Position numbers and translations under genes: made by a program. The notes beneath the pieces were generated by a model. That model searched no databases and was not told the origin of the DNA. It saw nothing but the letters and a program-made list of their open reading frames with translations. This document shows positions 3,041 through 40,808 of a DNA stretch of 43,152 nucleotides, in pieces (position 1 is the first letter of the stretch; each line of letters opens with the position of its first letter). This DNA comes from a virus (taxonomy: Duplodnaviria > Heunggongvirae > Uroviricota > Caudoviricetes): IMG/VR virus record IMGVR_UViG_2778261177_000005; one strand, 5' to 3'.

Positions 3041-3720
3041 CAGAGTAATACTCCCCATGCCCCTACATCAAAACCACTGATGAATTCGTTATCCATATCA
3101 AAACCAAAAAATTTTGAACCTTCCGATGGGGTTTCCACCGAAGGTGTTTCAATGCCACCCGCCCACACACCGGCGGCTTTTACTGTGAGATATCCCTGTT
3201 TAATTGCAGCAATTAACTCACGCGATACATCTGAAATATCAGTATCAGGAAAGACCCAGACCGATATCGTCATGTCCTGGTTATCGACTATCTGCATTCG
3301 CAGTCCGGATCCTGCTGTTGCAGCGTCAAGAATTGCCGGAAGCGAATCATTCCGTCCGTCCCAGTTATTAATCGCAATCTTCGCTTTAAGAATGACACGA
3401 TAAGTTTCATCGCTGAGATACATGTATCCTGAATCAGGATCATATGGCCCCTGCCATACCCCCTGATCATACCCAAGCCCGTCGGTATCCCAGCTGAAAT
3501 AGACACCTGAGATAAGCTGGCTGACAACACGGCTACGTCCGATCCACAATCCCAGAATGTCAAGTTGCACACCAACCGCAGAGTCAATATCAAATGCAGT
3601 AATCAGCCCTCTGGTGGCAGCCGCAACATCAATAAGCGGCCGGGTCATCAGATCAACATGTGCAAGAAATTTAGGTTTGGTGGCGTGGTAGTTTGTGATT
3701 AGTTCGGTGTATTTGCTCAT
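3040..3720 (-). CDS. baseplate/tail protein, P2 gpI-like (YmfQ/DUF2313-like)
   Basis: 226 aa; ATGA overlap with upstream gene; sits between the gpJ-like and tail fibre genes as in P2-type baseplate modules. Confidence 0.55.
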   Translation of the reverse strand: MSKYTELITNYHATKPKFLAHVDLMTRPLIDVAAATRGLITAFDIDSAVGVQLDILGLWIGRSRVVSQLISGVYFSWDTDGLGYDQGVWQGPYDPDSGYMYLSDETYRVILKAKIAINNWDGRNDSLPAILDAATAGSGLRMQIVDNQDMTISVWVFPDTDISDVSRELIAAIKQGYLTVKAAGVWAGGIETPSVETPSEGSKFFGFDMDNEFISGFDVGAWGVLL

Positions 3721-4916
3721 GACTCCACCGTTATAACGATATTTTCCGGGGTACAGGACGCAGATTCGTTGTATCTGATATCAATGTTTGATGACGACAA
3801 AGCCCCCGGGGATTTACCAATCGTCAGTTCCTGAATATCGTAATAGCGTGCATTCCCGCCACTCACCACGCCAAGATTCGCCGGTGAGTAAATGCGACTT
3901 AAAAGGACCGAATCACCAATCATCAGACTATTGATATAGTCGGAAATAGCCTGCTGGATCTGCTGCCCTATCTGTGAGGTATAACCCGTAAAAACTTTTA
4001 ATTTAATCCGGGCATAAACAGGCACATCACTGGAACGCGAGAATTTGATTACATGGGGATTGCCGTATTTATCCGGAACCGTAACGGATGTTGTACCGTG
4101 AGTGGCTGTCCCCTGGCCTTTATTCCCTCTGATAGCCTGAGCAATATCCGTCACATCACCACCATCCACAATTACAGCAACAGAGTGTGGCGGTAACCCG
4201 TTACCGTCCTCCGAACCAGTATCGTTTTCATAGAGTTTGTGGCGGGTTACACCGGCAACATTAGAAACAGCACCATCCAGTGCTTCAAATGGGGTTATTG
4301 ATGGCAACGCAACACTTTGCGACTGGCGGATACGTAACTCAGCATCAGTTTCTGCTGGAGTACCCACAGTAGCCGCAGCAGGATTGGTTACCGAAACCCA
4401 GCCACGGGTTGGCGTATTAATTTCAGTGATAGTTCCAGCCAGCGCCGCCACTGCACCACTGACGGAACATGTTGCGGTCACCATCACTGTACCATCCACG
4501 CCGACCACCACTGAAGCAGGCAAACGCCATATCACATTATTACTGTCTTTCACGCTGCCATTAATGATGGTTGTTCCGGCAGTTCCTGTAAGAAGCAAAT
4601 CAACCGTAGAGTTCGTCGCGCCTTTACGTGAAATACCATTTATTTTCACGTTACTGGTCAGTGCAGCCCCATAGCCGGTTGCCGGTGAAAAACAGTTGTA
4701 GACAGTTATCGCCGTATTATTGGCATCATGAATCGCCAGCGCCATCAGAGCCACCATCTGGCCGTCTTTACTGTCTGGTTCGAGGTAAGCATCACTGCCA
4801 TAAATCTGCTGAAAATAGCTAATCAGGGTGCTGAGTATCGTCTGATAATCAGGCGCACTGATCCCCTCCGCGGTTACCTTTGCAGATAAACCGAGAGAAT
4901 CAAGGTTCAGAGCCAT
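3717..4916 (-). CDS. baseplate J-like protein (P2 gpJ / Mu gp47-like)
   Basis: 399 aa; translationally coupled to flanking genes; family assigned from position and size. Confidence 0.6.
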   Translation of the reverse strand: MALNLDSLGLSAKVTAEGISAPDYQTILSTLISYFQQIYGSDAYLEPDSKDGQMVALMALAIHDANNTAITVYNCFSPATGYGAALTSNVKINGISRKGATNSTVDLLLTGTAGTTIINGSVKDSNNVIWRLPASVVVGVDGTVMVTATCSVSGAVAALAGTITEINTPTRGWVSVTNPAAATVGTPAETDAELRIRQSQSVALPSITPFEALDGAVSNVAGVTRHKLYENDTGSEDGNGLPPHSVAVIVDGGDVTDIAQAIRGNKGQGTATHGTTSVTVPDKYGNPHVIKFSRSSDVPVYARIKLKVFTGYTSQIGQQIQQAISDYINSLMIGDSVLLSRIYSPANLGVVSGGNARYYDIQELTIGKSPGALSSSNIDIRYNESASCTPENIVITVES

Positions 4917-5269
4917 TACGCCTCCGATGTAACAGTCGTTATTCCATAGAGAGTGTCGATTTCAGCGGAAAACATGACACGTCGGGTCGTGGTATCCACC
5001 GTCGTATTGAAAGAGAGGATTGATTTAACGCCCCGCGTTTCGAGGATGCGCTTACGGATCGCCAGGTTGTAGGTTTCCGGCTTCTGCTTACCGAGTACGG
5101 ACTGGATCCACGGAGTCCCCTCGGTGGTGTCGAGAAACCATTGTCCATACCACAATTCGAATCGCGTTTTTACCGCCTGCGCCACGGCCTCCGGTGAGTT
5201 AATCAGCCAGGTGTCATCACCGCTGCCAAAGGTGTAATCGCCATCGGCGTCTTCACGTCTGTATCGCAT
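4916..5269 (-). CDS. baseplate wedge protein, gpW/gp25-like
   Basis: 117 aa; overlapping start/stop with neighbours; between the gpV-like and gpJ-like genes. Confidence 0.55.
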   Translation of the reverse strand: MRYRREDADGDYTFGSGDDTWLINSPEAVAQAVKTRFELWYGQWFLDTTEGTPWIQSVLGKQKPETYNLAIRKRILETRGVKSILSFNTTVDTTTRRVMFSAEIDTLYGITTVTSEA

Positions 5270-6021
5270 CAGTTTACTCCGTCGGTATTGCCTCCACCGC
5301 GCTGAACACCACCATGAGTGTGCGTATCATCGATTGGCTTGCCGTTAGCCTTCACGCTACCCAAAAACTCAACAGCACCAGTGATTTTTGAAGCCACACC
5401 AGAAGCAACAGACCCCACCATGCCACCCATCCAGGTTAACAGGCCATGAATGGTTACTTTCTCAGAAAAATCAGCCAGAGGGGCAACCACATCAAGACCA
5501 CCCGGAGCGACAATTTTAATTTTCCGGGTATCAGGATTAAGCTCAAAATAGGTGCTGCCGTCGTCACTACGCAACTGTGTGGCACTGGTATTAATACCGC
5601 TAATCTTCCTAGCCTGCGACTGGGGACCGACAATACAAAACGCATCCGATAAATCATGCATTCTGTCATCGACCGGCTCCTGTATCCCGCCACTCTGCCA
5701 CCAGAAATCAATACAACGATCGGCAAAAATCACCAAACATTCATCACCGGCTTTAACTGGAAACGTTAGCGTACAGCCTCCGCCACGCGGGAATACCACT
5801 GGCACATCCACCAGCAATGGGTAATTTTTGGTAATGCGGTTGCCGTCGTTATCAATTTCAACGTAACGGATAGCAGGCTGTACAACCGCCGTCACCGCAT
5901 CAGGAGCGAATGACTGAACAATGCCAGGCAAGGCGACACGGATCTGGTTCTTTGTTGTTTCCCGTTCAGATTTAAATGTTTCGGCAAGGTCACCGCTGCG
6001 GGTCTGGTCAGATACTGCCAT
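5269..6021 (-). CDS. baseplate assembly/spike protein, gpV-like
   Basis: 250 aa; RBS GGAG 9 nt upstream of the ATG at 6021; first gene after the inserted island. Confidence 0.6.
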   Translation of the reverse strand: MAVSDQTRSGDLAETFKSERETTKNQIRVALPGIVQSFAPDAVTAVVQPAIRYVEIDNDGNRITKNYPLLVDVPVVFPRGGGCTLTFPVKAGDECLVIFADRCIDFWWQSGGIQEPVDDRMHDLSDAFCIVGPQSQARKISGINTSATQLRSDDGSTYFELNPDTRKIKIVAPGGLDVVAPLADFSEKVTIHGLLTWMGGMVGSVASGVASKITGAVEFLGSVKANGKPIDDTHTHGGVQRGGGNTDGVN

Positions 6022-6038
6022 TTAGTAGGCTCCAGAAA

Positions 6039-6062
6039 GCAAAAAACCCGCCAAGTGGCGGG
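6039..6062 (-). terminator. intrinsic terminator immediately 3' of the accessory gene pair
   Basis: Minus strand reads CCCGCC-ACTT-GGCGGG followed by UUUUUU; lies between the stop of 6086..6514 and the gpV-like RBS. Confidence 0.7.
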
Positions 6063-6085
6063 TTTGAATTTTGAGAAATTTCAGC

Positions 6086-6514
6086 TTATGCAGTTAACGA
6101 GTCATCACCAATCTTCAGTAATTGATTAACGATTGCATCGACCTCTTCCGCATCCAGAATTACACTTCTCGCGGTAATCCGGTTGATTTTCCGCTCAAGC
6201 TTGTAATCAGAATTAACACGTTGGGCATGCGTCATTTTCAGTTTAACGCCGATTTTCTTTACTGCGTTAACATCAACATCGTTAAGTGCAGCTGCCTCAC
6301 CACTACAAAAGGCCGTATAGACTCGCATGTGAACTCCACCTTTTAGTTTTTCACCATCTTGTGTAGCGGTCGGTACCAGATTGTTGGTGATCCGTAAGGC
6401 GGAATGGTACATACCATAGTATGCTCGGCTAATAGCATTTCTCGTCCACATCTCACCGTTTAGAGCCAGGGAATGCTTAGCCAATTCAAGAAAACAGGTA
6501 TGCTCAACCGACAT
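6086..6514 (-). CDS. HEPN-like helical domain protein (candidate RNase toxin / abortive-infection effector)
   Basis: 142 aa; N-terminal ...EMWTRNAISRAYYGMYHSALRI and C-terminal ...HAQRVNSDYKLER resemble the two conserved helices of classical HEPN domains as I recall them; TAATG coupling to the upstream gene; AT-richer than flanking tail genes by eye. Confidence 0.45.
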   Translation of the reverse strand: MSVEHTCFLELAKHSLALNGEMWTRNAISRAYYGMYHSALRITNNLVPTATQDGEKLKGGVHMRVYTAFCSGEAAALNDVDVNAVKKIGVKLKMTHAQRVNSDYKLERKINRITARSVILDAEEVDAIVNQLLKIGDDSLTA

Positions 6515-7245
6515 TAGAGTTCCCCGGCTTCAAAGCATCCGACGCATTCTGAATCCGCAAGCCCCGCAATAATAATCTCATCAGCCAAGGCATTATTCAT
6601 CTGCGAAAGAAGCACTGGATCGTCTGTTTTGACTTCAACGAACAGCGTATCAAGTTCTGACATTACATAAAAAGCATGAGCGCCAGCAAGACGAGCGCGG
6701 TACTTTTCTGCAACGTTCATCATGAGCCGCCCAATAGTTTTTAGCTCCTGAGCATGATCTTTTTGGGTATGCAGATAATTGAGCGTGTCATACCATTTGC
6801 CCATATCTTCAGGGCGCGGTACTTCCATTGCAGTTAGCATCGGCATCACCTTTTCAAGCAAATCGATATCAACCCAGTATGCAGAAATTGTAGCAACCTC
6901 AGCCAATATCGTTGGATTAAGTGAATCAGATGCTTTCTGAATCATCACATACTGGCGAGCATGCAAACCTAAGTTACGCAGCGCAATCGTATAGTTACAA
7001 AAAGAAACTGGATCGTTAGGCGCTATTCTCAACCCCCGCTCACAGAGTGAACATCCTTCATCTATTTCACCAAGAACAAGCTTAGCTAAGCCTTCAATTG
7101 ATAGCCCCTGATAACGTTCAGGTAGTTTCTTCGCTTCACGAATGATTCGATGGATTTCAAACTCACTCAGAAGGTTTTCACCCTTAGTTAATGAAGGAGT
7201 CAGAAGATCTAACAGTTCTCCTGATTTTGGCTGCGCTAAACTCAT
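6514..7245 (-). CDS. hypothetical protein, predicted all-helical (TPR-like?), partner of the HEPN-like protein
   Basis: 243 aa; RBS AGGA about 10 nt upstream of ATG; preceded by a 149-bp gap; no motif I recognise (no nucleotidyltransferase GS...DxD motif). Confidence 0.6.
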   Translation of the reverse strand: MSLAQPKSGELLDLLTPSLTKGENLLSEFEIHRIIREAKKLPERYQGLSIEGLAKLVLGEIDEGCSLCERGLRIAPNDPVSFCNYTIALRNLGLHARQYVMIQKASDSLNPTILAEVATISAYWVDIDLLEKVMPMLTAMEVPRPEDMGKWYDTLNYLHTQKDHAQELKTIGRLMMNVAEKYRARLAGAHAFYVMSELDTLFVEVKTDDPVLLSQMNNALADEIIIAGLADSECVGCFEAGEL

Positions 7246-7394
7246 GTTTTAGTTATTCCTGGCTTTAATGAAGTAGCATATCGATGGCAATCCACCATCA
7301 AAAAGTCAGTGCAGTGTAATCGCTCGTCTCAAAAAACAACAGTTTTTAGAGCACATTTTGTTGTTTTTCAGGCGTTACGAATTTCAGGTTACCT

Positions 7395-7736
7395 TCACCC
7401 AGCCACTTTTTTACAAGGGAAAGATCCGATGATTTTCGGCGCATCCATGCTGTTCTGCAGAAGCTGGACATTCAGGAATCGCGTTTCGGTACCAGGGCGA
7501 CGAATGTATTCAAAGCCGTAGTTGTTACCGTCTTTGGCAGGCATAAGCCCCATGTCTACTTTCAAACCATTGGTACCCAGTTCGGTGATTTTTTGAGAGG
7601 TAACTCTTTCACCGTTGATAGTCGATAACTCGCCCTGGTTTGCAACCATAGTGTAGCCACCGCATTTAACCGTGAAGCCATCCGCCCACGCGCTGCACGC
7701 AGAAAAGACAGCTAACAGAAAAATAATACCCCTCAT
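7395..7736 (-). CDS. small secreted/periplasmic protein (signal peptide, 2 Cys in mature part)
   Basis: 113 aa; N-terminus MRGIIFLLAVFSACSAWA-DG is a typical Sec signal peptide with AxA site; RBS AAGGGGA; start 3 nt after the gpD-like stop. Confidence 0.6.
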   Translation of the reverse strand: MRGIIFLLAVFSACSAWADGFTVKCGGYTMVANQGELSTINGERVTSQKITELGTNGLKVDMGLMPAKDGNNYGFEYIRRPGTETRFLNVQLLQNSMDAPKIIGSFPCKKVAG

Positions 7737-7739
7737 TGC

Positions 7740-27776: not shown

Positions 27777-27845
27777 TAAGTGCGGGTGCGTTGAGGATGC
27801 CTGACACATCAGAGGTGGCGAGGGATTTCTCCCCCGCCGGGTCTC

Positions 27846-28001
27846 TTACTCCTCAGGTTCGTAAGCTGTGAAGACAGCGACCTCCGTCTGGCCGGTTCGG
27901 ATTCGTACCTCGCAGAGGTCTTTCCTCGTTACCAGTGCCGTCACTATGACGGTAATACAGATGACGATCAGGGCGACTAACATCGCCTTTTGCTGCTTCA
28001 T
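27846..28001 (-). CDS. hok: Hok/Gef-family type I toxin (HokD/RelF-like)
   Basis: 51 aa MKQQKAMLVALIVICITVIVTALVTRKDLCEVRIRTGQTEVAVFTAYEPEE; single TM helix then conserved Cys; RBS AAGGAG; in-frame upstream extension in ORF 27846..28058 in the mok position. Confidence 0.85.
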   Translation of the reverse strand: MKQQKAMLVALIVICITVIVTALVTRKDLCEVRIRTGQTEVAVFTAYEPEE

Positions 28002-28292
28002 AGCCTGCTTCTCCTTGCCTTTCGGCACGTAAGAGGCTAACCTAGATTTGCCGTTCATAGATTGAGCCTCAGATTAATGTTAAGCGTCTTGCAGGACGCG
28101 TAATGTTAACTGGGGCTCTTCTCTATCTGCCTTTTGGTGTTCATGCCCGAGGCAGATAGCCTCAAGCACCCGCAGCAATTTTACTTAACTCCCCTTTTCA
28201 CGCAAACCGTTTTTATCCCCAGCGGCAAATCGAATACACCACCAGCGCCACCGCCATCGCAATTCCTACCGTTGTGAATGCTTCAGGCCAGG

Positions 28293-28976
28293 TCATTGAT
28301 TCACCTCCTGCGGTGGTTCAGGCAACGCTTCCAGTGATGCTTTCACAAACCACGCTGCCTGAACTATAACGCCATGAATCCAGCGCAAATCAGCATCGCG
28401 ATCTTTCTTTTTCATCTTTTCGCCACTTAAAGCCTGGCTTATGTGGCTGCGCACCAAGTCTTCATGTAACTCCTTCGCATCCTCAACGGTGAAACCACCA
28501 GGCAAAAGAGTCGGAGTTACCGGAGAGTTGGTTGACGTTTCCGAGATTTCCCGAAAGTTTCCGGCATGAAGCATGGCGGCGCGGCAGGCGTTCCATGAAA
28601 TTTCCTGAAGGGAACGACGAATCTGTGTGCTGCATATACTCCTCCCTGACTCCTGGCTGTTAAACCATGTTTCAAATTCCGGCACTACTGGTGCTGGTTG
28701 GGTGGTGACATTGGCAAAGGCTGCACGCAACCCTGTCTTAATTTCCTCTACCTCATCAGCGCCTGGCGATGAATCTGACAGTGCGCGATGGAATGCGTAA
28801 GCCATGTCGTCGTTGATTTCTACAGGCACACTATCAGCCTTGCGGCGCTCCTGTAGCTCGCGCAGAGCCGCTGCAACATAATGACTATTGTGCTGGTCAG
28901 CCCACAGAATGAGCCGAATCAACGTTGCATTTGAAACGTATTCGTCTGTTAGTTTGCTATTGGTAAAAGTGGTCAT
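28293..28976 (-). CDS. hypothetical protein
   Basis: 227 aa; ATGA overlap with the HNH gene; no motif recognised. Confidence 0.5.
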   Translation of the reverse strand: MTTFTNSKLTDEYVSNATLIRLILWADQHNSHYVAAALRELQERRKADSVPVEINDDMAYAFHRALSDSSPGADEVEEIKTGLRAAFANVTTQPAPVVPEFETWFNSQESGRSICSTQIRRSLQEISWNACRAAMLHAGNFREISETSTNSPVTPTLLPGGFTVEDAKELHEDLVRSHISQALSGEKMKKKDRDADLRWIHGVIVQAAWFVKASLEALPEPPQEVNQ

Positions 28977-29338
28977 GCTGTAGCCCCTTCTTGATATTTT
29001 TCAAACCAGAACACAACCGGGTCAGGTTTCATTTCAACCAATCCCATACGAACCAGCGCTTTGCCTTTCCCGGACGCAAGGAATTCACGACGACCATCAC
29101 TGATAATTCGCCGATAATCTTCCAGGCTACTGCAATGCTTGTGCAGATTGCATGGGTGGCATGCCGGAACCATGTTGGATATATCGTCACGTTCCTGGTG
29201 AAGCATATTTCCAGCAAAACGAATGACCGGTTTTACATGGTCTGCATGCCACTTTTCGCCAAGTTCGCAGCCGCAATAAGCACAGCGACCGCCGAACTTC
29301 ATGCGCAGCTCTGCACGTTGTTTTTTCGTCAGTGCCAT
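28973..29338 (-). CDS. HNH endonuclease
   Basis: ORF 28973..29428; ATG at 29338 gives 121 aa with CAYCGC...HADHVKP...NMVPACHPCNLHKH, an HNH/zinc-finger nuclease signature. Confidence 0.75.
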   Translation of the reverse strand: MALTKKQRAELRMKFGGRCAYCGCELGEKWHADHVKPVIRFAGNMLHQERDDISNMVPACHPCNLHKHCSSLEDYRRIISDGRREFLASGKGKALVRMGLVEMKPDPVVFWFEKYQEGATA

Positions 29339-29339
29339 A

Positions 29340-29558
29340 TCAGCTTTCCTTATACGGATTAATTTTATTGTGCAGTGTGTTGAACGACGCCCACACCACG
29401 TCGTTATACAATTCAATAACTGGCTCAATTATTTTCCCGATTGCCCAGACAAAAATTAGCGGGGATATCGGTATCAGCAACACGATAAACAGAATGAGAA
29501 ACAAAAATTCTGTCACTCTACTTTTTCGCGGATATTCTTTTCTGAATAATGCAGTCAT
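29340..29558 (-). CDS. small hydrophobic (single-TM) protein
   Basis: 72 aa with a strongly hydrophobic core FLFLILFIVLLIPISPLIFVWAI; no clear RBS at proper spacing. Confidence 0.3.
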   Translation of the reverse strand: MTALFRKEYPRKSRVTEFLFLILFIVLLIPISPLIFVWAIGKIIEPVIELYNDVVWASFNTLHNKINPYKES

Positions 29559-29652
29559 TTATTACCGCCCTTTCGGGCGACCTCCTGATGTTCTGAGGGT
29601 GCAGAAATCCCTCCGGTTAAGGATTAAATTTTATTTACAACACTAAATTTAA

Positions 29653-30177
29653 TTATTCAGGCGCGCGAATCTGTTCCGCACAATGCAACAATGCTTCTGT
29701 CACTTCCTTAAGCGTTACGGTATCGGCATCATCCAGTCCTGCAACTTTTGCGTGCCTGACAAACGCCGCGCGAAGCTCGTTAAACGCCACCGCCCGTACA
29801 TCAGCCAGGAAAGCATCTGTAGCCGGGGTTTGCGGCATACCTCCGTCTGTTGCGCAGATATACGCATCAGATATTTCATCCTGCTCGCCATTAAACACAT
29901 AGCAACTCTGTAAGATAAATTTATTCAGCCGCGCATTCTCCGCCGCCAGCGTCATGCGTTCTTTCTCAAGTCGGAAAATTTCAGTCACGTATTTGGCGTT
30001 TTCACCCCCCTTGATTAACTCGTTAATTCGTTTGCTTTTAATTTCCAGTTCATCCAGCAGTTCCAGCACAACCTGAGGTGTGGCTTTCATACGAAATGCC
30101 AGCAATTTTTGTGGTGTGGCTGCTATTTTTATTGCTTCTGCCGCCCCACGCAGTGCCTGATAGTCAATCTTGCTCAC
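29653..30177 (-). CDS. Ead/Ea22-like protein
   Basis: 174 aa, GTG start with RBS AAGGAG; N-terminus MSKIDYQALRGAAEAIK resembles Ead/Ea22-like prophage proteins as I recall them. Confidence 0.45.
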   Translation of the reverse strand: MSKIDYQALRGAAEAIKIAATPQKLLAFRMKATPQVVLELLDELEIKSKRINELIKGGENAKYVTEIFRLEKERMTLAAENARLNKFILQSCYVFNGEQDEISDAYICATDGGMPQTPATDAFLADVRAVAFNELRAAFVRHAKVAGLDDADTVTLKEVTEALLHCAEQIRAPE

Positions 30178-30430
30178 TGGTTGTCTCCTTTTTCCATGTT
30201 TTCAGACTTTCACCACAGAACGGGCAAAATGAGACTCGAATAGGTGATTTAGAAAATTCACCGGAACGCAACATCACCAAATCAGGGGCGCGAGTTAAAT
30301 TCTCATTCCAGATTTTGTATATCAGCAGACCTTTTCGCATCGTGTATTCAGCATCATGCTCAAGGGCTTTTGCCAGTGCCGCACATGGTTCTATCTGATT
30401 GCCATTAACCTGACATTTTGATTCGCTCAC
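30164..30430 (-). CDS. small hypothetical protein with C-terminal CxxC
   Basis: 88 aa; GTG start overlapping the upstream stop (GTGA); CPFCGESL motif. Confidence 0.4.
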   Translation of the reverse strand: MSESKCQVNGNQIEPCAALAKALEHDAEYTMRKGLLIYKIWNENLTRAPDLVMLRSGEFSKSPIRVSFCPFCGESLKTWKKETTSEQD

Positions 30431-30849
30431 AGCATCACCTCCTGAAATTTCCCCTGATAAAACGCCAGCACTCGCTGCATAACCTCACTCTTCCGGCACT
30501 CGCGACAGATTATGTTCAGGTGTCTGTCGTAGCGGCGTATTTCTCCGTCAGGTAATGACCTGATAAGGTCCGGATCAACCACAGCCGTTTTCTTCACCTT
30601 TGCCCTTGAGAGTTTTTTGCGGGCGTTTTGCCAGTCCTTACGGGCCTGTTCAGAGGGAAATAACCCGTAGCCAGAGTTGTATACATCACCACTAGCAACC
30701 AGCTCTCTGGCGAGAACACTCATCAGATATCTTGTCGCACCTGTTTTCGCTTCCAGTTGCCGTAACGTCTCGCGCCCACTCCGGCGTACTAGCTCAACAA
30801 CCTGCCCTTTAATTTTTTCTCGCTCTTCCTGTGTAAATACTTTTGCCAT
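30427..30849 (-). CDS. hypothetical protein
   Basis: ORF 30427..30915; ATG at 30849 has strong RBS GGGGAGGG; 140 aa, basic, with CRECRK motif. Confidence 0.5.
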   Translation of the reverse strand: MAKVFTQEEREKIKGQVVELVRRSGRETLRQLEAKTGATRYLMSVLARELVASGDVYNSGYGLFPSEQARKDWQNARKKLSRAKVKKTAVVDPDLIRSLPDGEIRRYDRHLNIICRECRKSEVMQRVLAFYQGKFQEVML

Positions 30850-30865
30850 AAGCCCTCCCCAGGAA

Positions 30866-31627
30866 TCACTTTTCCGACACAATACGACTGGAGGAATCAA
30901 CAATCTGTCGAACAATATCCCGGTGCTTATTCAGCTCCCGCAGCGCGGCGCAGACACGCTCCCACTTCTGGACATGACTTTTCGCCCGACGCAGTTCGCG
31001 GTTTGCCATATGCAGCGATGGTAAAACCAGGTCATCCGCTTGCGTTTCGGCGAACGGTGGCAACGACTGCACAATATCCGCCACAGTTTCTGTTTTAATA
31101 TCTTCCTGTGTTGCAGCTTCCTGTACTGGTAACGCAACACCGGCTGGCTGAGGAAAGGCTTTACCATCAGTTTCCGCTACCGATGCCGCTTTCGGCTCTG
31201 CTGGTAAATTACCGCCCGGCATGCAGTAACGAAATTTACCGTTCTGATTAACACGAATCAGACGACCTTTGCTGATTGCCATTGCCAGCATTGAAGCCAC
31301 TTTGCGGGATGTTGTACCGAACAGCGTAGCCAGTTCATCCGCCGTTTGTGGTCCGCGTTGTTCAATCGTCGCGGTTAAATCGCACTCTGAGATTTTCGCT
31401 ACTGTCGCCGTGCTGGTTTCTTCCGGCTGTTCTTCTGGCGCTGGCTGTTCCTGCTGAACGTTGTTATCAGCCACACGCCAGGTGTATGCGCTTTTATCAA
31501 CGAAGCCAGCCTTTTTAAGTTCCCACAGCTCATTCAGCACTTCTTCACGACTGATATCAAGTCGCGCAGCCAGCTCTACCGACGTGGCTTTTCCCATCGC
31601 TTTCAGTGCGTCAAAAACAGTCTCCAT
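30866..31627 (-). CDS. double winged-helix DNA-binding protein (DUF1627-like)
   Basis: 253 aa; two wHTH-like segments ([29 protein letters not shown] and [32 protein letters not shown]) separated by a Glu/Pro/Gln-rich linker. Confidence 0.5.
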
Positions 31628-31647
31628 AAATTTCCTCCCGGTAAAAA

Positions 31648-32394
31648 TTACTTTTCAATACCTGGCTGACCAACATTCGGGCGCCAGCTCTCCCAGTTAA
31701 AATTCACCCAGCGCCCGCCGTTCATGGTCATGCGATCCATAATCCGCTCGCCGAGCAATGTTTTCATGGCCTCATAGTTCAGGTTTGTCAGCATTCCCAC
31801 GCTACGCATCGACGCTGTCCGTCGATCAATAATCTGGTGCAGTACCACCTGCTCGTTTTTCGTCTCGCGCTGAATGCCAATTTCATCAAGAACCAGCAGA
31901 TCCACTTCGCACAGTTCCCGCAAAAATTTTTCGCCTGACTGCCCGTCGTCATAGCTGGCGTGCAGGGCGCTCATAACATCAGCCACGGTAACCACAATCA
32001 CTGTCTGACCGTCTTTCAGCAGGCGATTCCCGATAGCTGCCGCTAAGTGATTCTTCCCGGTACCAGGTTTTCCGCTGAACGCAAAATTTGTACACCCGGT
32101 CATCAGTTCATCGGCGATGGATTTCGCCTGGCTTAACGCGTATCGCTGGCCGTCGTTCTGCACCTGGTAATTCGCAAACGAGCATTTACGGTGCAACGGC
32201 TGGATGCCTGAGCGATTCAGAATTTTTTCCACCCGCAACTGGCGATTCAGGCGGTTGATCTCCTCGCTACGTTTCTGGCCTTCAGCAAGTTGCCACTCGC
32301 GCCACTCCGCAACCGTTCTGAATGGGGCGGTTACATGTGGTGGGGTCAGTCTGCGGATACGCTCCAGAACGCCTCCTGTCGCAATATTTTTCAT
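31648..32394 (-). CDS. DnaC-like helicase loader (IstB-like AAA+ ATPase)
   Basis: 248 aa; Walker [11 protein letters not shown] and Walker B LLVLDEIG visible; downstream of the O-like gene. Confidence 0.8.
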
Positions 32395-32400
32395 GGTCTG

Positions 32401-33189
32401 TTACCCCCTGAAGCCTGGCGGGATCGCACTGTCCGGCAACGAGACGGTGTTAACCTGTCGGAGCAACGTCTCAGGCCGAACACCTTTCGGCGCGAACAGG
32501 CCCTGGTATTCATTGGCGATGCTGTGTCGAATCACCTGCTCAGGTGTAAAACCCTGCTGACGGAATTTTTCCAGTTCCCGTATCGCCCCGTTAGCGCCCT
32601 GCTCCGTTCGAATCGGTTTTCGCAATGCCTGTCTGAACCGGACCCACTCATGCCAGAGTGTTTCCGGCAACCAATCGGGCAGCTCAATAGCCTCCGGCTC
32701 GAATTTTTTAGACGCTCGTTTTTGGCGAGGGGGATTTAGGGGGAGATCAGTATTTAGATCTTCCTCTTCCTCTTCCTCTGGTAGCGCTTTTTGATCCGTT
32801 TGTGTAACGCCGGCAGCGTTACCTTTTCGTTTCAGTTCACGTATTTTTGTAACTCGCTCGTTTGTAACCGCCCGTTTTTTAGAGCTTTTTCCGTTATGGC
32901 GTTCAAAGTTAGGTAGAGAAAGCCCAACGTCATTTTCGACCAGCCATCCAACCTGAATTAACGCATCAGCAAAACCAGCCATAAAAGTGATGCGATCTAT
33001 TGCACTTTTTGTAACGCCGCGAGCGTTACAATCTGCATTACCGTCTATCATTTGTTGATCCGCCCATGCCCAGAAGCGAATAACCTTCCCTAATGCGGCA
33101 TCTGGATCAATATTCAGAATCTCAGCAAGCCTGAATATTTCCGGCTTATCCGGCGTAATAACCTCGAGCTTTATCCAGTTTGAAGCCAT
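32401..33189 (-). CDS. replication initiation/replisome organiser protein (O-like, YdaU/DUF1376-like)
   Basis: 262 aa; RBS AAGGTGA; poly-Glu linker (EEEEEED); position upstream of the DnaC-like gene. Confidence 0.55.
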   Translation of the reverse strand: MASNWIKLEVITPDKPEIFRLAEILNIDPDAALGKVIRFWAWADQQMIDGNADCNARGVTKSAIDRITFMAGFADALIQVGWLVENDVGLSLPNFERHNGKSSKKRAVTNERVTKIRELKRKGNAAGVTQTDQKALPEEEEEEDLNTDLPLNPPRQKRASKKFEPEAIELPDWLPETLWHEWVRFRQALRKPIRTEQGANGAIRELEKFRQQGFTPEQVIRHSIANEYQGLFAPKGVRPETLLRQVNTVSLPDSAIPPGFRG

Positions 33190-33221
33190 TTGTTTTCACC
33201 TTGTAACGCTCGCAGCGTTAC
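32803..33221. repeat. three copies of a 19-bp palindrome GTAACGC-N5-GCGTTAC (32803..32821, 33011..33029, 33203..33221)
   Basis: Read directly: gtaacgccggcagcgttac, gtaacgccgcgagcgttac, gtaacgctcgcagcgttac; two inside the O-like gene, one just upstream of its start; about 200-bp spacing. Confidence 0.7.
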
Positions 33222-33266
33222 ATTTAACTGATACCGAACAAAACAATCCGGCACGATTAATTTCAA

Positions 33267-33689
33267 TCAATGCACTACGACAGAATCACCGGGCGACCCA
33301 CCACCGCTGAAATGTGCTTTCCGGTAAACGGCCTGGACTGCATCATCATGCGCATCAATTGCCGTACTCAACGCTTCCTGCGCCGCCAGTAATGCACGGC
33401 GTTCCAGGGTATCGAAGATGCAGAGTCGGTGACGCAGCTCGCGCGGAAGAATTGCCAGAACCGCAGGGATCAGTGTCTGAATTTTTTCCCTTTGCGCTTT
33501 CGTTTCACCTTTTAACCAACGGTGATAGATGTTCTGCTGATTATTCCAGTCCTTGCCTGGTACCAGGGGCAATTCGCCGCCCCCCTGGCGCAGATATTCT
33601 TCAGTAATTGCATTGGCTACCCACGCCTGCCCTTTTTCGGCTGCCAGGGCTAACAACACTGATTCGATGTGCTCATGCCTGATTTTCAT
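33267..33689 (-). CDS. YdaT-like protein (Rac-type early regulator/toxin family)
   Basis: 140 aa; ATGA overlap with the cro-like gene; length and sequence resemble Rac YdaT as I recall it. Confidence 0.5.
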   Translation of the reverse strand: MKIRHEHIESVLLALAAEKGQAWVANAITEEYLRQGGGELPLVPGKDWNNQQNIYHRWLKGETKAQREKIQTLIPAVLAILPRELRHRLCIFDTLERRALLAAQEALSTAIDAHDDAVQAVYRKAHFSGGGSPGDSVVVH

Positions 33690-33928
33690 GAATCAACCGC
33701 TCCTATGCTGTTTTCGCTATGCTTACCGTCTGGGGGGAATACATCGTCAAGTCCACAATGAGCGCCAAGCCGATTAAGGGTAGAAACAATTTTTCTGCAC
33801 TCCTCTAGTCCAGGGGTACGAAAATTTGCTTCGTAATTTGCCAGTCGGCTTTGTATCCACCCTAACTGAACAGCAAGTTGTCTTTGAGACAGCCCAAGCT
33901 GTTTTCGATATGTTGAAATTTTGTTCAT
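33686..33928 (-). CDS. Cro/YdaS-like HTH regulator
   Basis: 80 aa; HTH YRKQLGLSQRQLAVQLGWIQSRLANYE; strong RBS GGAGG; divergent from the repressor gene. Confidence 0.7.
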   Translation of the reverse strand: MNKISTYRKQLGLSQRQLAVQLGWIQSRLANYEANFRTPGLEECRKIVSTLNRLGAHCGLDDVFPPDGKHSENSIGAVDS

Positions 33929-33952
33929 TGAAAACCTCCGATGACAATTTTA

Positions 33953-34013
33953 AACACACCTTGTGTTATATGGTCAAGCTGTTTTGTGTTTTATGTAAAT
34001 CACGATTCGTGAT
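33953..34013. promoter_or_regulatory. divergent promoter/operator region between the cro-like and repressor genes
   Basis: Palindromes aacac-acctt-gtgtt (33953..33967) and atcac-gattc-gtgat (33999..34013); candidate -35/-10 elements on both strands. Confidence 0.6.
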
Positions 34014-34024
34014 ACAAGGATGCA

Positions 34025-34444
34025 ATGGAAAAAGAAAACGAAAAAATTGCCGCTAGTAGGCTCAATGACAAAATTGCAATGCGTCTTAAAGAGCGCAGGC
34101 AGAAGCTTGGTTTATCTCAAGGAAAACTTGCTGAAATCTGCGGATGGACGCAATCGCGTATAGGTAACTATGAGGCGGGCAGCAGAAATGTTGGAGTGCA
34201 TGACGCTGTCGTATTGGGAAAGGCACTTGGCATATCTCCTCCTGAGCTCCTCTTTGGAGAACAGGAATCTTCTGAATTGTGGTTAAATGAATCCCAACGA
34301 AAACTTCTTGAGTTGTTTAACCAGCTACCGGGCTCAGAACAACAACGAATGATTGAGCTATTTGAAGTCCGGCTAAAAGAAATCGATGAGTATGTAGAAA
34401 AATATTTGAGAGGCAGGCTTAAAGATAATCCCCCACCGGAGTAA
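34025..34444 (+). CDS. prophage repressor, HTH XRE-family (RacR/CI-like, no peptidase domain)
   Basis: 139 aa; HTH RQKLGLSQGKLAEICGWTQSRIGNYEAG; RBS AAGGA; divergent from the cro-like gene; followed by a terminator. Confidence 0.75.
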   Translation: MEKENEKIAASRLNDKIAMRLKERRQKLGLSQGKLAEICGWTQSRIGNYEAGSRNVGVHDAVVLGKALGISPPELLFGEQESSELWLNESQRKLLELFNQLPGSEQQRMIELFEVRLKEIDEYVEKYLRGRLKDNPPPE

Positions 34445-34474
34445 TGATCTTGCTATCACAGTAATATGCCAATC

Positions 34475-34498
34475 AGCCCGCTATCAGCGGGCTTTTTT
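34475..34498 (+). terminator. intrinsic terminator after the repressor gene
   Basis: AGCCCGC-UAUCA-GCGGGCU followed by UUUUUU. Confidence 0.75.
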
Positions 34499-34527
34499 GT
34501 ACCATCATAATATGATACCCACCGCAA

Positions 34528-34569
34528 AACACATTTCGTGTTGACACAAGAAAACACATTGTGTTTAAT
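34528..34569 (+). promoter_or_regulatory. PL-like early promoter with two operator palindromes
   Basis: -35 TTGACA (34541..34546), 17 bp, -10 TTTAAT (34564..34569); palindromes aacac-atttc-gtgtt (34528..34542, overlapping -35) and aaacaca-t-tgtgttt (34552..34566). Confidence 0.65.
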
Positions 34570-34743
34570 AAGCATATCCAAACAACGCCCCACCAGAGAA
34601 CGGCAGGACAATACCTCGAGTTATCCAGCCACTGAACAGGGCTAAGTAGCCAGCCTGAGGCATACGAACATGACGGCAGTTGTTGATTGATACAAAGCGC
34701 AGTAGATAAAACGTTCCGCCACCCGGCGTTAAGGGGAAAAAAG

Positions 34744-34962
34744 ATGGTTGGTGAAGATCTGGTTGTTATTAACGGTCAATTGTGCAGCAAAGATGTGGCA
34801 GCCATGCTTATTAGCAAGGTTCTTCCAACTGTGCTGGAGGTCATTGCAGAAAAAGTAAAGGCTGGTCATCCAGACAAGGAAGTTGAAGAGGCGGCAAAAA
34901 CAGTTGTTCATGCCGCTACAGAAGCAATTATTTTGAAGAGCCTAGTTTCGCCCAAGCCTTAA
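34744..34962 (+). CDS. small hypothetical protein, first gene of the PL-like operon
   Basis: ORF 34687..34962; ATG at 34744 has RBS GGGGA 8 nt upstream; 72 aa; not N-like (no arginine-rich motif). Confidence 0.35.
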   Translation: MVGEDLVVINGQLCSKDVAAMLISKVLPTVLEVIAEKVKAGHPDKEVEEAAKTVVHAATEAIILKSLVSPKP

Positions 34963-35122
34963 GTGAATCGGCGCTTTTTTTAGCATCACGTTCATTGAGT
35001 AGTGACAAAAACTCATTCTCAGCATTCTCGATTTCCGAGAAAAATTCTTGATGAGTTGTTTCTCGCTGCGATCTGATGCTGAAAGCTAAAGCAAGTAGCC
35101 AGGCTTTGTCTTTATTATCCAT
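34928..35122 (-). CDS. small hypothetical protein, convergent with 34744..34962
   Basis: 64 aa; weak RBS AAGG; overlaps the 3' end of the plus-strand ORF by 35 nt; one of the pair may be spurious. Confidence 0.3.
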   Translation of the reverse strand: MDNKDKAWLLALAFSIRSQRETTHQEFFSEIENAENEFLSLLNERDAKKSADSLKAWAKLGSSK

Positions 35123-35517
35123 CGGAATACCTTATTACTGGTTGTGTGAGAACTCCAGTATACCACCGAGCCTGAAGTGGTAAAAAGACAGGCGCACAAC
35201 ACGAAGGCGCATTTCCGGTATTCATAAAGAGTCGGTCTTGTCTGTTAAATTTAAATGGTGGGAGTGCGCCTCCGGTTGTAAATAACGACATTGCTATGTG
35301 TAGTCTTTGGCGGCATAAGTTCTACTCCGTGGCTGCCCTGCCACCCCTTTTTAAAGTGAATTTTGTGATGCGGTGAATGCGGCTAAGCGCACGCGGCACA
35401 GTTAAAAGCATCAGTGTTATGGGTGGATTATCCGGCGTTAATTGTTAACTGGTTAACGTCACCTGGAGGCACCAGGCACCGCATCGACAAAATTCATTTG
35501 TAAAAATGGAGATAATT

Positions 35518-35739
35518 ATGATTGCTCATCACTTCGGAACTGATGAAATACCACGTCAGTGTGTGACCCCTGGCGATTATGTTCTTCATGAAGGTCGGAC
35601 ATATATCGCCTCGGCAAACAATATTAAAAAGCGAAAACTTTATATTCGTAGCCTGACTACAAAAACATGCATTTCTGACTGCATGATTAGAGTCTTCCTC
35701 GGTCGTGATGGTTTACCTGTAAAGGCGGAGTCATGGTAA
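35518..35739 (+). CDS. KilR-like small protein (putative cell-division inhibitor)
   Basis: ORF 35506..35739; ATG at 35518 with RBS GGAG; 73 aa, the length of Rac KilR; Rac-like gene order (kilR-ydaE-racC-recE-recT). Confidence 0.45.
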
Positions 35740-35912
35740 TGACTAAGAAAATAAAATGTGCTTATCACCTTTGCAATAAAGAAATTGAAGAAAGCAAAAT
35801 CATTACAAGACCACTTCATTTCATGCGTGGAGTTATACCAACGACGGAAATGAAAAAATATTGTAGTGAAATCTGTGCCGAAAAAGACCAGATGGCACAC
35901 GAACTTTAATTA
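35739..35912 (+). CDS. YdaE-like small zinc-binding protein
   Basis: 57-aa ORF not in the supplied track (below 60 aa), translated by hand; TAATG coupling to the KilR-like gene; CAYHLC...CSEIC Cys pairs. Confidence 0.4.
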
Positions 35913-35983
35913 ACTGACTATCCGAAACTGAATTTATGCCAGCAATGGCAGGGATTCGCTCAACCTTAATTAAGGAGAAAAAC

Positions 35984-36229
35984 ATGATTACCAGTTATGA
36001 AGCCACTGTTGTTACTACTGATGACATTGTTCACGAAGTTACCCTGGAAGGAAAGCGTATTGGCTACGTGATTAAGACAGAAAATAAAGAAACCCCATTC
36101 ACTGTGGTTGATATCGACGGTCCATCAGGCAACGTTAAAACACTTAACGATGGTGTTAAAAAAATGTGTCTGGTGCACATAGGAAAGAATCTGCCCGCAG
36201 AAAAAAAGCCGAATTTCTGGCAACTCTGA
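35984..36229 (+). CDS. small hypothetical protein (RacC position)
   Basis: ORF 35936..36229; ATG at 35984 has strong RBS AAGGAG; 81 aa. Confidence 0.4.
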   Translation: MITSYEATVVTTDDIVHEVTLEGKRIGYVIKTENKETPFTVVDIDGPSGNVKTLNDGVKKMCLVHIGKNLPAEKKPNFWQL

Positions 36230-36357
36230 TTGCAATGAAATTAAAAGGTGAAATCTGAAAAAAAGAAAGCCTGCACACTGTGCAGGCCTGAGTGAAGAAC
36301 CTGGGACATTTATTCATCACTCGCATTAATTTTAATCTGAGTTGAGGTTAAAAAACA

Positions 36358-39300
36358 ATGAGCACCGATAAACAAGTTTACCCACTGTATTACGAAGCAA
36401 AAAATGACAAAGTAAGAAAACGTCTCGGTATTAAAGGCGGTTTCTACTGGGCTGAAGCGAAAAAATTATCCATTGCCATCTCCCGTGGTGCTGTTGCGAT
36501 TGACGATGCTGGCTACGATGAAGATGACTTTAAAAAACCTGTTCGCGTCAATTTGCCCGTTGTTGATGACCTTCCACCAGAAGGCGTATTTGATACGGAA
36601 TTCTGCAACCGTTACGAAAAAGGCGGGGAAGATGGCATCACAATGGTATTTATCGCGCCCTCATCCTCTGCGCAGGACAAACCAGCCAGCACTGACAATA
36701 CCAATGTTAATGGCGAAGACATGACGGAGATTGAGGAGAATATGCTACTCCCGATTTCCGGTCAGGAGCTGCCCATTCGCTGGCTTGCTCAACACGGCAG
36801 CGAAAAACCGGTAACGCACGTTTCACGCGACGAACTACAGGCATTACACATTGCACGAGCTGAAGAACTACCAGCTGTTACTGCCCTGGCTGTTTCCCAC
36901 AAAACCAGCCTGCTCGACCCGCTGGAAATTCGCGATCTCCACAAACTGGTGCGTGATACTGACAGAGTTTTCCCTAATCCAGGCAATTCAAGCCTGGGGC
37001 TGATGACTGCTTTTTTCGAAGCATACCTGGACGCAGACTACACCGATCGCGGTCTGCTGACAAAAGAGTGGATGAAAGGAAATCGTGTTTCATGCATCAC
37101 GCGCACGGCTTCCGGCGCTAATGCTGGCGGCGGGAACCTCACCGATCGCGGCGAAGGTTTCGTTCACGATCTGACGTCACTGGCGCGCGACGTAGCGACT
37201 GGCGTACTGGCTCGTTCAATGGACGTGGACATTTATAACCTTCATCCGGCACACGCTAAACGTGTCGAGGAAATTATCGCTGAAAATAAACCGCCCTTTT
37301 CTGTTTTCCGCGACAAATTCATCACCATGCCTGGCGGGCTGGATTATTCCCGCGCCATCGTGGTTGCGTCCGTAAAAGAAGCACCAATTGGGATCGAGGT
37401 TATCCCCGCACACGTCACTGAATATCTTAACAAAGTTCTGACTGAAACTGATCATGCCAACCCTGATCCAGAAATCGTGGATATTGCCTGCGGTCGTTCC
37501 TCTGCCCCGATGCCGCAGCGTGTAACAGAAGAAGAAAAACAGGATGATGAAGAAAAACTGCAACCATCTTGCGCAATGGCAGATGAACAGGCAACGGCTG
37601 AAACAGTGGAACCGGATGCAACTGAACATCATCAGGACACGCAGCCGCTGGATGCTCAGTCACAGGTAAATTCTGTTGATGCGAAATATCAGAAACTGCG
37701 GGCAGAACTCTATGAAGCCCGGAAAAACATTCCGCCCAAAAATCCTGTCGATGCAGACAAATTACTGGCTGCCTCTCGCGGAGAATTTGTTGAAGGGATT
37801 AGCGACCCGAATGATCCGAAATGGGTTAAGGGGATCCAGACCCGCGATTCTGTGTACCAGAATCAGCCAGAAACGGAACAGAACGACCCAAATACGCAAC
37901 AAAACGAGCCAGAAACGAAACAGCCTGAGCCAGTAGTGCAACAACAGGAAACGGAGAAAGTTTGCACCGCCTGCGGTAAGGCTGGCGGCGGCAACTGTCC
38001 TGACTGTGGCGCGGTGATGGGCGACGCAACGTATCAGAAAACCTTTAATGAAGAAAATCAGAATGAATATCAGGAAAAAGGTCTGGAGGAAATGGAAGGT
38101 GCTGAACATCCGCACAAGGAGAACGCTGGCAGCAATCCGCATTGCGATTGCAGTGATGAAGCTGGTGAAACGACAGCACCTGTAGTAACTGAAATCATGT
38201 GGCCGTCATATTTCGAGCCTGGCCGCTATGAAAACCTCCCGAACGAGGTTTATCACTCCGCCAACGGAATAAGCAGCACAATGCTGAAGGATGCCCGCAT
38301 CAGCCTGATGTATTACCACGGACGGCACATTGCCGGAACTATTCCGGGCGAGGAAAGTGATGCATTGCTGCGTGGGCGGATTATTCACAGTTATGTTCTG
38401 GAAACGGATAAATTCGCTGATGAGTATGCCATTCCGGTACCGGTTCCTGAATATGTGGTTACTACTTCTAACGAACTGATCGCCATCATTAAAAAACACA
38501 ATGCCAGTCTGCCAGCACTGATGACACCAGAGCAGATGAAAGAGTGGATCGAAAGCTACAACAGCACTCTTATACAGCCACTGTCGGTAAGTGCCGGGGC
38601 CGAAGAAACAGGCATCCTTTACGGTTCGCTTCCGGAGGAATTCCGGCGTATTCCTGAGGGGGAAAAACACACAGCATCAGCAATGAAAGCCTGTATTAAA
38701 GAATACAACGCAAGCCTCCCTCCTCTGCTGAAAGCCAGTGGAACACGAGAGCAGCTCCTGGAGCAAATTGAAACTGTAGATCCAGAACTGGCAAAAAAAG
38801 AACGTGCTAAATCTTTGCCTTACAACATCAGTGGCACAAAAGAGCAATTAACCGAAATCGCCCGGAAAATTCGCCCGGAACTGGTAACACTGGAGGACTG
38901 GCAAAAACGCCAGCAAGAAGAACACGCCGGGAAAACGTTTATCAGTCCGGATATGTATGAACAGGCAAAAAATATTCACGCAGCACTGCAAAACAATACT
39001 GATGCAGCAAGGCTACTCAACCACCCGGATCGCAAATCTGAAATCAGCTATTTCGGGTTTGATGAAGAAACCGGGCTGGAAATCAGGGTCCGTCCTGATA
39101 TCGAAATCCGGCTGCCATACGAAAGCATTTGCGCCGACGTGAAGTCAGTCAGCCTCGGTTATGTGCGACAGGAACGACTGAAAGATCGCCTGCACCGTGA
39201 AATTATTGAACGTGATTATCACCTCAGCGCAGCAATGTATTGCGATGTGGCAAACCTGGACAAATTTTTCTGGATCTTCGTCAACAAAGATGCTGGCTAT

Positions 39301-39486
39301 CACTGGGTGGCCGTCGTGGAAGCCTCGCAGGAACTCCTGGAACTTGGTCGACAGGAATATCGCCGGACACTACGACAGATAAACGAAGCTCTGGAGACAA
39401 ACAACTGGCCAGCACCGATTACCGAAAGTTATACCGACGAATTAAACGACTTTGATCTTCGTCGTCTTGAAGCACTGAGCATCTGA
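36358..39486 (+). CDS. exodeoxyribonuclease VIII-like recombination exonuclease (RecE-like), enlarged
   Basis: 1042 aa; central region (...[40 protein letters not shown]...) resembles Rac RecE as I recall it; zinc-ribbon [16 protein letters not shown]; divergent N- and C-terminal parts. Confidence 0.7.
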
Positions 39487-39497
39487 GGAAGGACACA

Positions 39498-40550: not shown

Positions 40551-40613
40551 TATTTACTATGGCGGTGTAGCCTCACCGCCATAACAAAACTTTATTTTAT
40601 GAGAGAAAAGACA

Positions 40614-40808
40614 ATGCGGTATGAAAAAGTCAAACCATGTCCGTTTTGTGGTTGTCCATCAGTAACGGTGAAAGCCATTTCAGGATATTATCGCGCAAAG
40701 TGTAACGGATGCGAATCCCGAACCGGCTATAGTGGAAGTGAAAAAGAAGCACTCGAAAGATGGAATAAACGAACTACTGGAAATAATAATGGAGGTGTTC
40801 ATGTATAA
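40614..40808 (+). CDS. Lar-family restriction alleviation protein (RalR-like)
   Basis: ORF 40599..40808; ATG at 40614 gives 64 aa with CPFCG...CNGC zinc-ribbon; position after recT as in Rac. Confidence 0.55.
   Translation: MRYEKVKPCPFCGCPSVTVKAISGYYRAKCNGCESRTGYSGSEKEALERWNKRTTGNNNGGVHV

Follow-up and report, generated by a model that had tools for sequence, protein, structure and literature searches.

We examined a two-gene cassette in a 43,152-nucleotide (nt) stretch of DNA, the IMG/VR virus record IMGVR_UViG_2778261177_000005 (Caudoviricetes), which represents the nearly complete genome of a temperate phage integrated in Escherichia coli and is referred to below, at its full length, as the window. 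The cassette consists of a gene for a 243-amino-acid (aa) protein, hereafter the partner, followed by a gene for a 142-aa protein with a predicted HEPN fold. Both open reading frames (ORFs) and the TAATG overlap between them had been pointed out in a first-pass annotation of the sequence and were recovered exactly on the minus strand (Table 1). Within the overlap, the stop codon of the partner gene and the start codon of the HEPN gene have one base in common, which suggests that the translation of the two genes is coupled. In nearly all homologous loci (numbered with the prefix L) the genes overlap or are separated by no more than 14 nt; in L050 the gap is 40 nt. Both ORFs are genuine genes, as about 60 loci hold homologous pairs in intact form, at identities down to about 30%, and among close relatives with unsaturated synonymous divergence (dS) both genes gave dN/dS values of 0.05–0.14, indicating strong purifying selection.

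To our knowledge, the AF0298-like branch of HEPN proteins without the catalytic histidine has no assigned activity, while HEPN RNases are among the commonest effectors in bacterial immunity. The structural model of the 142-aa protein, predicted by AlphaFold2 from a 24-sequence alignment, was confident (pLDDT 91.4) and displayed the HEPN fold, in that its four helices form an up-down bundle, helices 2 and 3 are separated by an insert, and the whole resembles solved HEPN domains. The two segments that had been singled out as HEPN-like before, SRAYYGMYHSAL and QRVNSDY, were located at residues 29–40 and 98–104, respectively. In the family profile, the former aligned with 'STAYYAMFHAA' of AF0298 and the segment R99–Y104 with 'LREESDY' of the same protein, and a PDB sequence search with E values up to 10 returned AF0298 (2hsb) as its sole match. 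The profile of the extended family alignment A3, which spans 31–100% identity, retrieved 255 proteins, some of which have precomputed PF05168 matches (P0120, P0124, P0143 and P0145, one of them marked weak) or are named 'HEPN domain-containing' in UniRef. In PHROGs, the 142-aa protein matched phrog_5176, a family of unknown function.

Eleven residues are invariant in A3 (E21, R25, S29, Y32, Y33, H37, H62, D81, R99, D103 and Y104), and no family member has a histidine four to six residues past the invariant R99. The HEPN assignment of the first-pass annotation was thus partly supported: it held for the fold, by the model and the AF0298 alignment; the R-x3-DY stretch on which it had partly relied is not the catalytic R-x4-6-H motif, and the Pfam check it had named came back blank. 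In AF0298-like HEPN-T and AbiV proteins the motif arginine is retained, the histidine is lost, often to aspartate, and a second conserved histidine is found in the helix 2–3 insert, where it has been proposed to form an alternative active site with an acidic residue on helix 2 (PMC3710099). By sequence and model, the 142-aa protein fits this AF0298-like HEPN-T subtype: R99 is retained, D103 stands at the position of the lost histidine, and H62 lies in the helix 2–3 insert, between core helices 21–43 and 82–104 of the model. The invariant H62 in the insert and E21 at the start of helix 2 are the family counterparts of the proposed site. The presence of eleven invariant polar residues in a protein of 142 aa argues for chemistry or specific ligand binding, catalysis being putative.

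The partner is predicted to comprise a conserved N-terminal segment (residues 1–60), a TPR-type helical repeat domain (about 42–180) and a C-terminal beta-beta-alpha-beta module (186–240). It had been described as helical, maybe TPR-like, and as not being a minimal nucleotidyltransferase (MNT), and the searches agreed with both statements: the only Pfam match was a weak one to TPR_17 (E=0.023), no nucleotidyltransferase profile matched the protein, and its predicted fold is a TPR-type domain plus a small alpha/beta module. A profile search of 1.84 billion representatives retrieved only about 55 full-length relatives, all of them stand-alone proteins of 236–280 aa; the remaining matches were generic multi-TPR proteins that cover positions 42–112 of the partner only. 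The C-terminal module had no significant PDB or Pfam match by sequence profile. Conservation was highest at residues 1–60 and lowest at residues 141–200, and diversifying selection in this variable centre was considered and rejected, omega being at most 0.2 in every region. In comparisons with L005, L023 and L030, codons 1–60 of the partner gene (window 7066–7245) showed a synonymous divergence (pS) of 0.07–0.23 versus 0.18–0.60 elsewhere in the gene; recombination, or a constraint at the nucleotide level such as a regulatory or translation-initiation element, could account for this low divergence over the first 180 nt.

Analysis of the homologous loci revealed that the two genes constitute an obligate, mobile two-gene unit. 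In 45 of the 48 loci collected with the HEPN profile, tblastn placed the partner directly upstream of the HEPN gene, and the same kind of partner was present in all of the about 25 divergent loci whose genes were inspected; L049 and L050 encode divergent TPR-like partners of 260–270 aa. Distant HEPN relatives are all accompanied by an upstream partner of 245–266 aa in an overlapping or nearly abutting arrangement, and the carriers of these distant pairs include Proteus (638 contigs), Pseudomonas, Dickeya, an unassigned metagenomic prophage, a P2-like Vibrio phage and the Klebsiella phages vB_Kpn_Chronis and ST405-OXA48phi1.3. Across 24 loci, the pairwise identities of the partner and those of the HEPN protein were highly correlated (r=0.97; Mantel test, 0/2000), the partner evolving faster, with a mean identity of 0.30 versus 0.43 for the HEPN protein. 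The earlier proposal that the genes form a pair was therefore upheld by their adjacency across about 60 loci, from Escherichia to Proteus, Pseudomonas and Vibrio, with a single locus split by an insertion sequence (IS). In this locus, L025, an IS3-family insertion lies 11 nt before the HEPN start and three to four codons before the partner stop and separates the two genes; its transposase gene (1–348, orfA-like, MKKRFSDEQIISILREAEAG...) adjoins the cassette, and the contig ends within the IS. L025 was considered as a sign that the HEPN protein alone is harmless and was judged neutral, as the partner is probably nearly intact beyond the IS and the HEPN gene is uncoupled. As a side observation, positions 3501–3896 of ST405-OXA48phi1.3 (L067, MK416008.1) hold an intact 131-aa HEPN ORF where GenBank shows two short hypothetical ORFs (3553–3684 and 3681–3896); the split looks like an annotation error, not a pseudogene.

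The cassette is accessory to the phages that carry it. Among 5,426 complete E. coli genomes, the pair was present in 33, always in single copy and on the chromosome, versus 314 genomes with the flanking spike gene, so that the cassette is dispensable in about 90% of the prophages with the same spike gene. Only 3 of 50,697 deposited phage genomes contain it, and its carriers are almost exclusively temperate phages and prophages. Its GC content of 0.41–0.45 differs from that of the flanks (0.50–0.57), and the strong intrinsic-terminator-like hairpin found past the HEPN stop in the window has equivalents in 20 of 21 loci, covering all context types, compared with 11% of random windows (P about 1e-18); the stem CCCGCC...GGCGGG recurs often among these loci. 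Upstream of the partner lies a non-coding gap of a length unusual inside a tail operon, in which a strong sigma-70 promoter was looked for and rejected because the consensus scan was blank. The cassette thus displays some of the features expected of a moron, as a dispensable insert with lower GC content and its own terminator, the promoter match being weak only.

The cassette was found in at least eight kinds of genomic slots. In the window, in Dickeya and in L032, L039 and L045–L047 (down to 40% identity) it occupies the interval between the hub and spike genes of a myovirus. It was further detected between the major tail protein and tape measure genes of siphovirus L040, between the tape measure and tail-tip genes of a lambda-like Lelliottia prophage, between endolysin and terminase genes in L043, among Rha/Ant regulators in L006, and at a mutS/integrase border in Pseudomonas. 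The hub-spike position, shared by the window and the five numbered loci, would fit a virion or tail-assembly accessory encoded in the baseplate block; this role is effectively refuted by the distribution, as the cassette is missing from about 90% of the prophages with the same spike gene and sits in non-structural slots in other phages, and its lower GC content, own terminator and HEPN fold also speak against it. In the P2-like Vibrio phage, the cassette lies between the portal gene and replication gene A, which is the gpA-gpQ hotspot of P2 known to house old/tin and further defence systems (Rousset 2022).

Another slot lies directly downstream of a cI-type repressor gene on the same strand (L049, L052–54 and L058). 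In the Proteus locus the order is cI, 34 nt, partner, HEPN, terminator, a PL-like site (TTGACT-17-GAATAT) and an N-like gene, and there is no terminator within the 34-nt gap between repressor and partner, which implies that the pair is expressed in the repressed prophage. Phage lambda has the layout PRM-cI-rexA-rexB followed by PL-N, and rexAB is the classical lysogen-expressed exclusion system. This arrangement bears on the possibility that the cassette is a counter-defence module which, during lytic growth, disarms host immunity, for instance by degrading a signalling nucleotide or host RNA. HEPN proteins bind or cleave nucleotide-containing substrates, and the window cassette lies inside the late (tail) operon and has no clear promoter of its own, as such a module might. 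We consider it a very improbable explanation, since the same-strand position 34 nt behind cI implies expression in the repressed prophage and not in early infection, the cassette is nearly confined to temperate phages and prophages, with the few deposited phage genomes mentioned above, and no likeness to known anti-defence proteins was seen.

The hub-spike interval of SEN34/Brunovirus-type prophages (window 6022–7739; L002, L051 and L059–L064) is an unstudied cargo hotspot, in which at least six alternative sets of genes, all hypothetical, were found. Pfam and PADLOC searches with ten hub-spike proteins, nine from alternative cargo and one of 113 aa from the window, assigned no family, the only match being a weak PycTM-like one (L061:4190-4744, E=9e-4). 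An argument from guilt by association in this slot was dropped as uninformative. The 113-aa ORF of the window (7395–7736, minus strand) starts with an N-terminal signal peptide (MRGIIFLLAVFSACSAWA|DG) and separates the cassette from the baseplate hub gene; in related prophages its position is taken by different small genes of 110–117 aa or 233–298 aa, and it may be further cargo, such as a periplasmic exclusion protein. Between this ORF and the cassette, an AT-rich inverted repeat (AAAAACAAC ... GTTGTTTTT) with a loop of about 19 nt, followed by T residues, was noticed on the minus strand at 7331–7368; it might serve in regulation or as a weak terminator.

We give somewhat better than an even chance to the explanation that the pair is a self-contained cassette of temperate phages, expressed by the prophage and functioning as a two-component abortive-infection (Abi) or toxin-antitoxin (TA)-like exclusion system. 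This explanation is suggested by the HEPN fold with its conserved putative site, the obligately linked and coupled partner of a protein-binding type, the moron-like features and the recurrent use of exclusion-gene slots; the toxin or Abi role itself we infer from the fold and the genomic context. Toxicity, physical interaction of the two proteins, RNase activity, sensing and phage protection are likewise proposed here. The HEPN protein would be the effector, either an RNase or an RNA-binding toxin, acting through an alternative site of the AF0298/AbiV type made up of R99, the loop residue His62 and Glu21, possibly together with D103 and Y104. The TPR protein would bind the HEPN protein and hold it inactive, by analogy with RnlA/RnlB and HepS; the candidate contact surfaces on the partner are its first 60 residues, which are conserved, and its C-terminal module. 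The TPR groove may sense a protein made by an infecting phage, and sensing would free or activate the HEPN protein; RNA would then be cut or sequestered, and translation would halt before the cycle of the invader ends.

Several results weigh against this exclusion system. The 142-aa protein had zero Pfam matches even at E values up to 10, staying below the gathering threshold of PF05168, neither protein of the window pair had a match in NCBIfam, and the PADLOC matches of the window proteins were weak (HEPN_IX, E=0.009; the other, E=0.037). The consensus sigma-70 scan upstream of the partner on the same strand yielded no site with at least 9 of 12 matches, so that lysogenic expression of the window cassette is putative, and the alternative cargo of the hub-spike slot belongs to no known defence family, which makes association at that slot uninformative. 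The low omega throughout the partner is unlike what would be expected of a sensor in an arms race. Finally, nuclease activity is not assured because the canonical histidine is absent, and non-catalytic HEPN proteins acting as regulators or RNA binders were also recognised in the 2013 HEPN census (PMC3710099).

The last two points also favour the alternative that the HEPN protein is non-catalytic and works in the lysogen as an RNA- or nucleotide-binding regulator of host physiology or of lysis-lysogeny, with the TPR protein as its adaptor (MtlR-like). Such a regulator would also be in keeping with the likely co-transcription of the pair with the cI repressor gene in several phages and with the lack of diversifying selection. 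We nevertheless regard it as unlikely, since the eleven invariant polar residues stand at known HEPN site positions and suggest chemistry over mere binding, the unrelated slots (tail, lysis-terminase and integrase border) suit a lysogeny regulator poorly, and about 90% of related prophages do without the cassette.

Comparison with known systems delimited what is particular to the pair. The 142-aa protein shares its subtype with the AF0298-like HEPN-T proteins (UPF0332/PF05168, PDB 2hsb). AF0298-type proteins are typically paired or fused with MNTs, or occur solo, in archaea and thermophiles (PMC3710099), unlike the protein studied here, which has a TPR partner, is carried by proteobacterial prophages and, in its window version, falls below the Pfam threshold. 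AbiV of Lactococcus is a solo protein of Firmicutes without a TPR partner, and its similarity to the 142-aa protein is much weaker than that of AF0298. In HepT/MntA, a type VII TA system, HepT has the canonical R-x4-H motif that the 142-aa protein lacks, and neutralisation by AMPylation in the manner of HepT/MntA cannot apply because the pair contains no MNT.

A different possibility is that the cassette is a plain TA addiction module, in which the TPR protein would be a labile antitoxin and the HEPN protein the toxin, and which would stabilise the prophage or element without any anti-phage role. The larger 'antitoxin' gene stands first, translational coupling is suggested, co-inheritance is strict, HepT/MntA and RnlAB are established systems with HEPN toxins, and the pair also occurs at integrase-border islands, all of which would be expected of such a module. 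However, the partner lacks a domain with which it could bind DNA and autoregulate, its 243 aa exceed the usual size of an antitoxin, and what the cI-N and gpA-gpQ positions are known to hold is exclusion genes, not stability genes, so that we hold pure addiction to be doubtful. TA and Abi roles can coexist and are not mutually exclusive.

With regard to HEPN systems with partners other than MNTs, RnlA/RnlB is a precedent, although RnlA, like LsoA, is a large multidomain protein with canonical motifs and without sequence relationship to the 142-aa protein, and RnlB is a small labile protein that, unlike the 243-aa partner, is not of the TPR type. The 2013 HEPN census listed operons of the LA2681 HEPN family with TPR proteins and of AbiU2 with Sel1-repeat proteins (PMC3710099). 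These resemble the present cassette in combining a HEPN gene with a gene for a TPR/Sel1-type repeat protein; they keep the canonical R-x4-6-H motif and have only been catalogued. The remark of the first-pass annotation that a HEPN protein with a non-MNT partner was not recognised as a described system therefore applies to this particular pair and not to the arrangement in general, given the RnlA/RnlB, LA2681 and AbiU2 precedents. In a literature search, neither the pair nor its accessions were found described, and, apart from the weak HEPN_IX match, no PADLOC 2.0 model covers the pair.

HepS, a solo HEPN Abi protein of the Gifsy-1 prophage, is constitutively produced in lysogens and activated by a phage structural protein (PMC13043305). 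Like the 142-aa protein, it is small and encoded in an accessory slot of a prophage, and it shares with that protein the concept of a prophage that defends its host by an RNA-targeting HEPN protein. In contrast to the cassette with its obligate TPR partner, HepS is encoded by a single gene, has the canonical motif R100-x4-H105 and senses by itself; kinship was rejected, as HepS was not among the PDB sequence matches or the listed fold matches and the motif differs. The layout of lambda RexA/RexB recurs in the Proteus-type prophages, in that cI directly precedes a two-gene operon on its own strand, behind which come a terminator and then PL-N; the proteins are unrelated, RexB being a membrane protein and the cassette proteins soluble HEPN and TPR proteins. 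DefensePredictor DS-28 of E. coli (a HEPN protein of 163 aa plus a protein of 252 aa; WP_000528930/WP_000494510) was rejected as a relative by BLASTP E values of 1.7 and 0.75, and the accessions of the present pair are absent from the supplements of the DefensePredictor paper. Relative to known HEPN two-gene conflict systems, the novelty resides in the partner type and the non-canonical HEPN protein, HEPN-based defence itself being an expected theme.

More tentatively, and at rather less than an even chance, the pair may represent an uncharacterised prophage exclusion family distributed from Enterobacterales to Vibrio and Pseudomonas, in which an 'H-less' AF0298-type HEPN protein has a TPR-plus-novel-domain protein as its sensor or antitoxin. 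The H-less HEPN branch is met here as part of a two-gene cassette, compact and strictly conserved, which temperate phages shuttle among recognised exclusion slots. If this proposal is true, classical 'MNT-type' HEPN proteins have been re-partnered with a protein-sensing module, and if the HEPN protein is active, the function and mechanism of the alternative HEPN site that was proposed in 2013 for AF0298-like HEPN-T and AbiV proteins would become accessible for the first time. If the pair protects lysogens, it would be a new defence family common in prophages of clinical Proteus, Klebsiella and E. coli, and escape phages could be used to map the trigger of its small TPR-based sensor.

Table 1. 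Positions in the window of the cassette, its signals and the surrounding prophage genes
Feature	Position	Strand	Remarks
Partner gene	6514..7245	-	243 aa; ATG start; ORF
HEPN-domain gene	6086..6514	-	142 aa; ATG start; AF0298-like HEPN-T subtype; ORF
TAATG stop/start overlap	6512..6516	-	Read from sequence (CATTA on the plus strand)
S29-L40 codons	6395..6430	-	SRAYYGMYHSAL; helix-2 signature common with AF0298; S29, Y32, Y33 and H37 invariant
H62 codon	6329..6331	-	Invariant in A3; starts short helix 61-71 of the model
R99-V-N-S-D103-Y104 codons	6203..6220	-	HEPN motif position; Arg retained, canonical His absent; A3 alignment
Intrinsic-terminator-like hairpin	6044..6065	-	AAACCCGCC-ACTT-GGCGGGTTT, then T-run; 21 nt past the HEPN stop; scan
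Non-coding gap upstream of partner	7246..7394	-	149 nt; ribosome-binding-site-like AGGAA at 7256-7260; sequence
Promoter-like TTGATG-15 nt-TATGCT	7275-7301	-	Weak; read by eye
Membrane-puncturing spike gene	5269-6021		Structural half
Hub-like protein gene	7740-8801		Structural half
Tape-measure-like protein gene	9693-11699		Structural half
recE	36358-39486		Rac-like half
recT	39498-40550		Rac-like half
Integrase gene	41343-42419		Rac-like half

The prophage in the window is a mosaic of a structural half that belongs to the SEN34/Brunovirus myovirus type and includes baseplate J, and a second half that is Rac-like. Its closest complete genome is that of E. coli PEC148 (L069), with 96–98% identity, in which the integrase end adjoins yebY/copD. 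Strain WAT (L001/L068) has the same structural module and a cassette that is 100% identical, but a lambda-Red-type early region and an integration site between torS and torT, from which it follows that the cassette is carried by at least two prophage mosaics. The WAT prophage contains tRNA-Asn and tRNA-Thr genes after Q, whereas the window, with its recE/recT early region beside yebY, is without tRNA genes. The idea that phage tRNA genes provide self-immunity against an anticodon nuclease was rejected, as the window has no tRNA gene and the surroundings of the pair in 27 loci showed no consistent tRNA. The Rac-like early region of PEC148, which corresponds by homology to about 27,800–41,000 of the window, encodes the small toxins or killing functions hokD, ydaT-family, kilR and ralR. 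At positions 6673–8122 of L001 in WAT (about 750–2200 of the window), the tail-fibre gene has as neighbours two tail-fibre-assembly genes and a gp53-like fragment in opposing orientations, an arrangement that, by gene orientation, resembles an invertible host-range segment.

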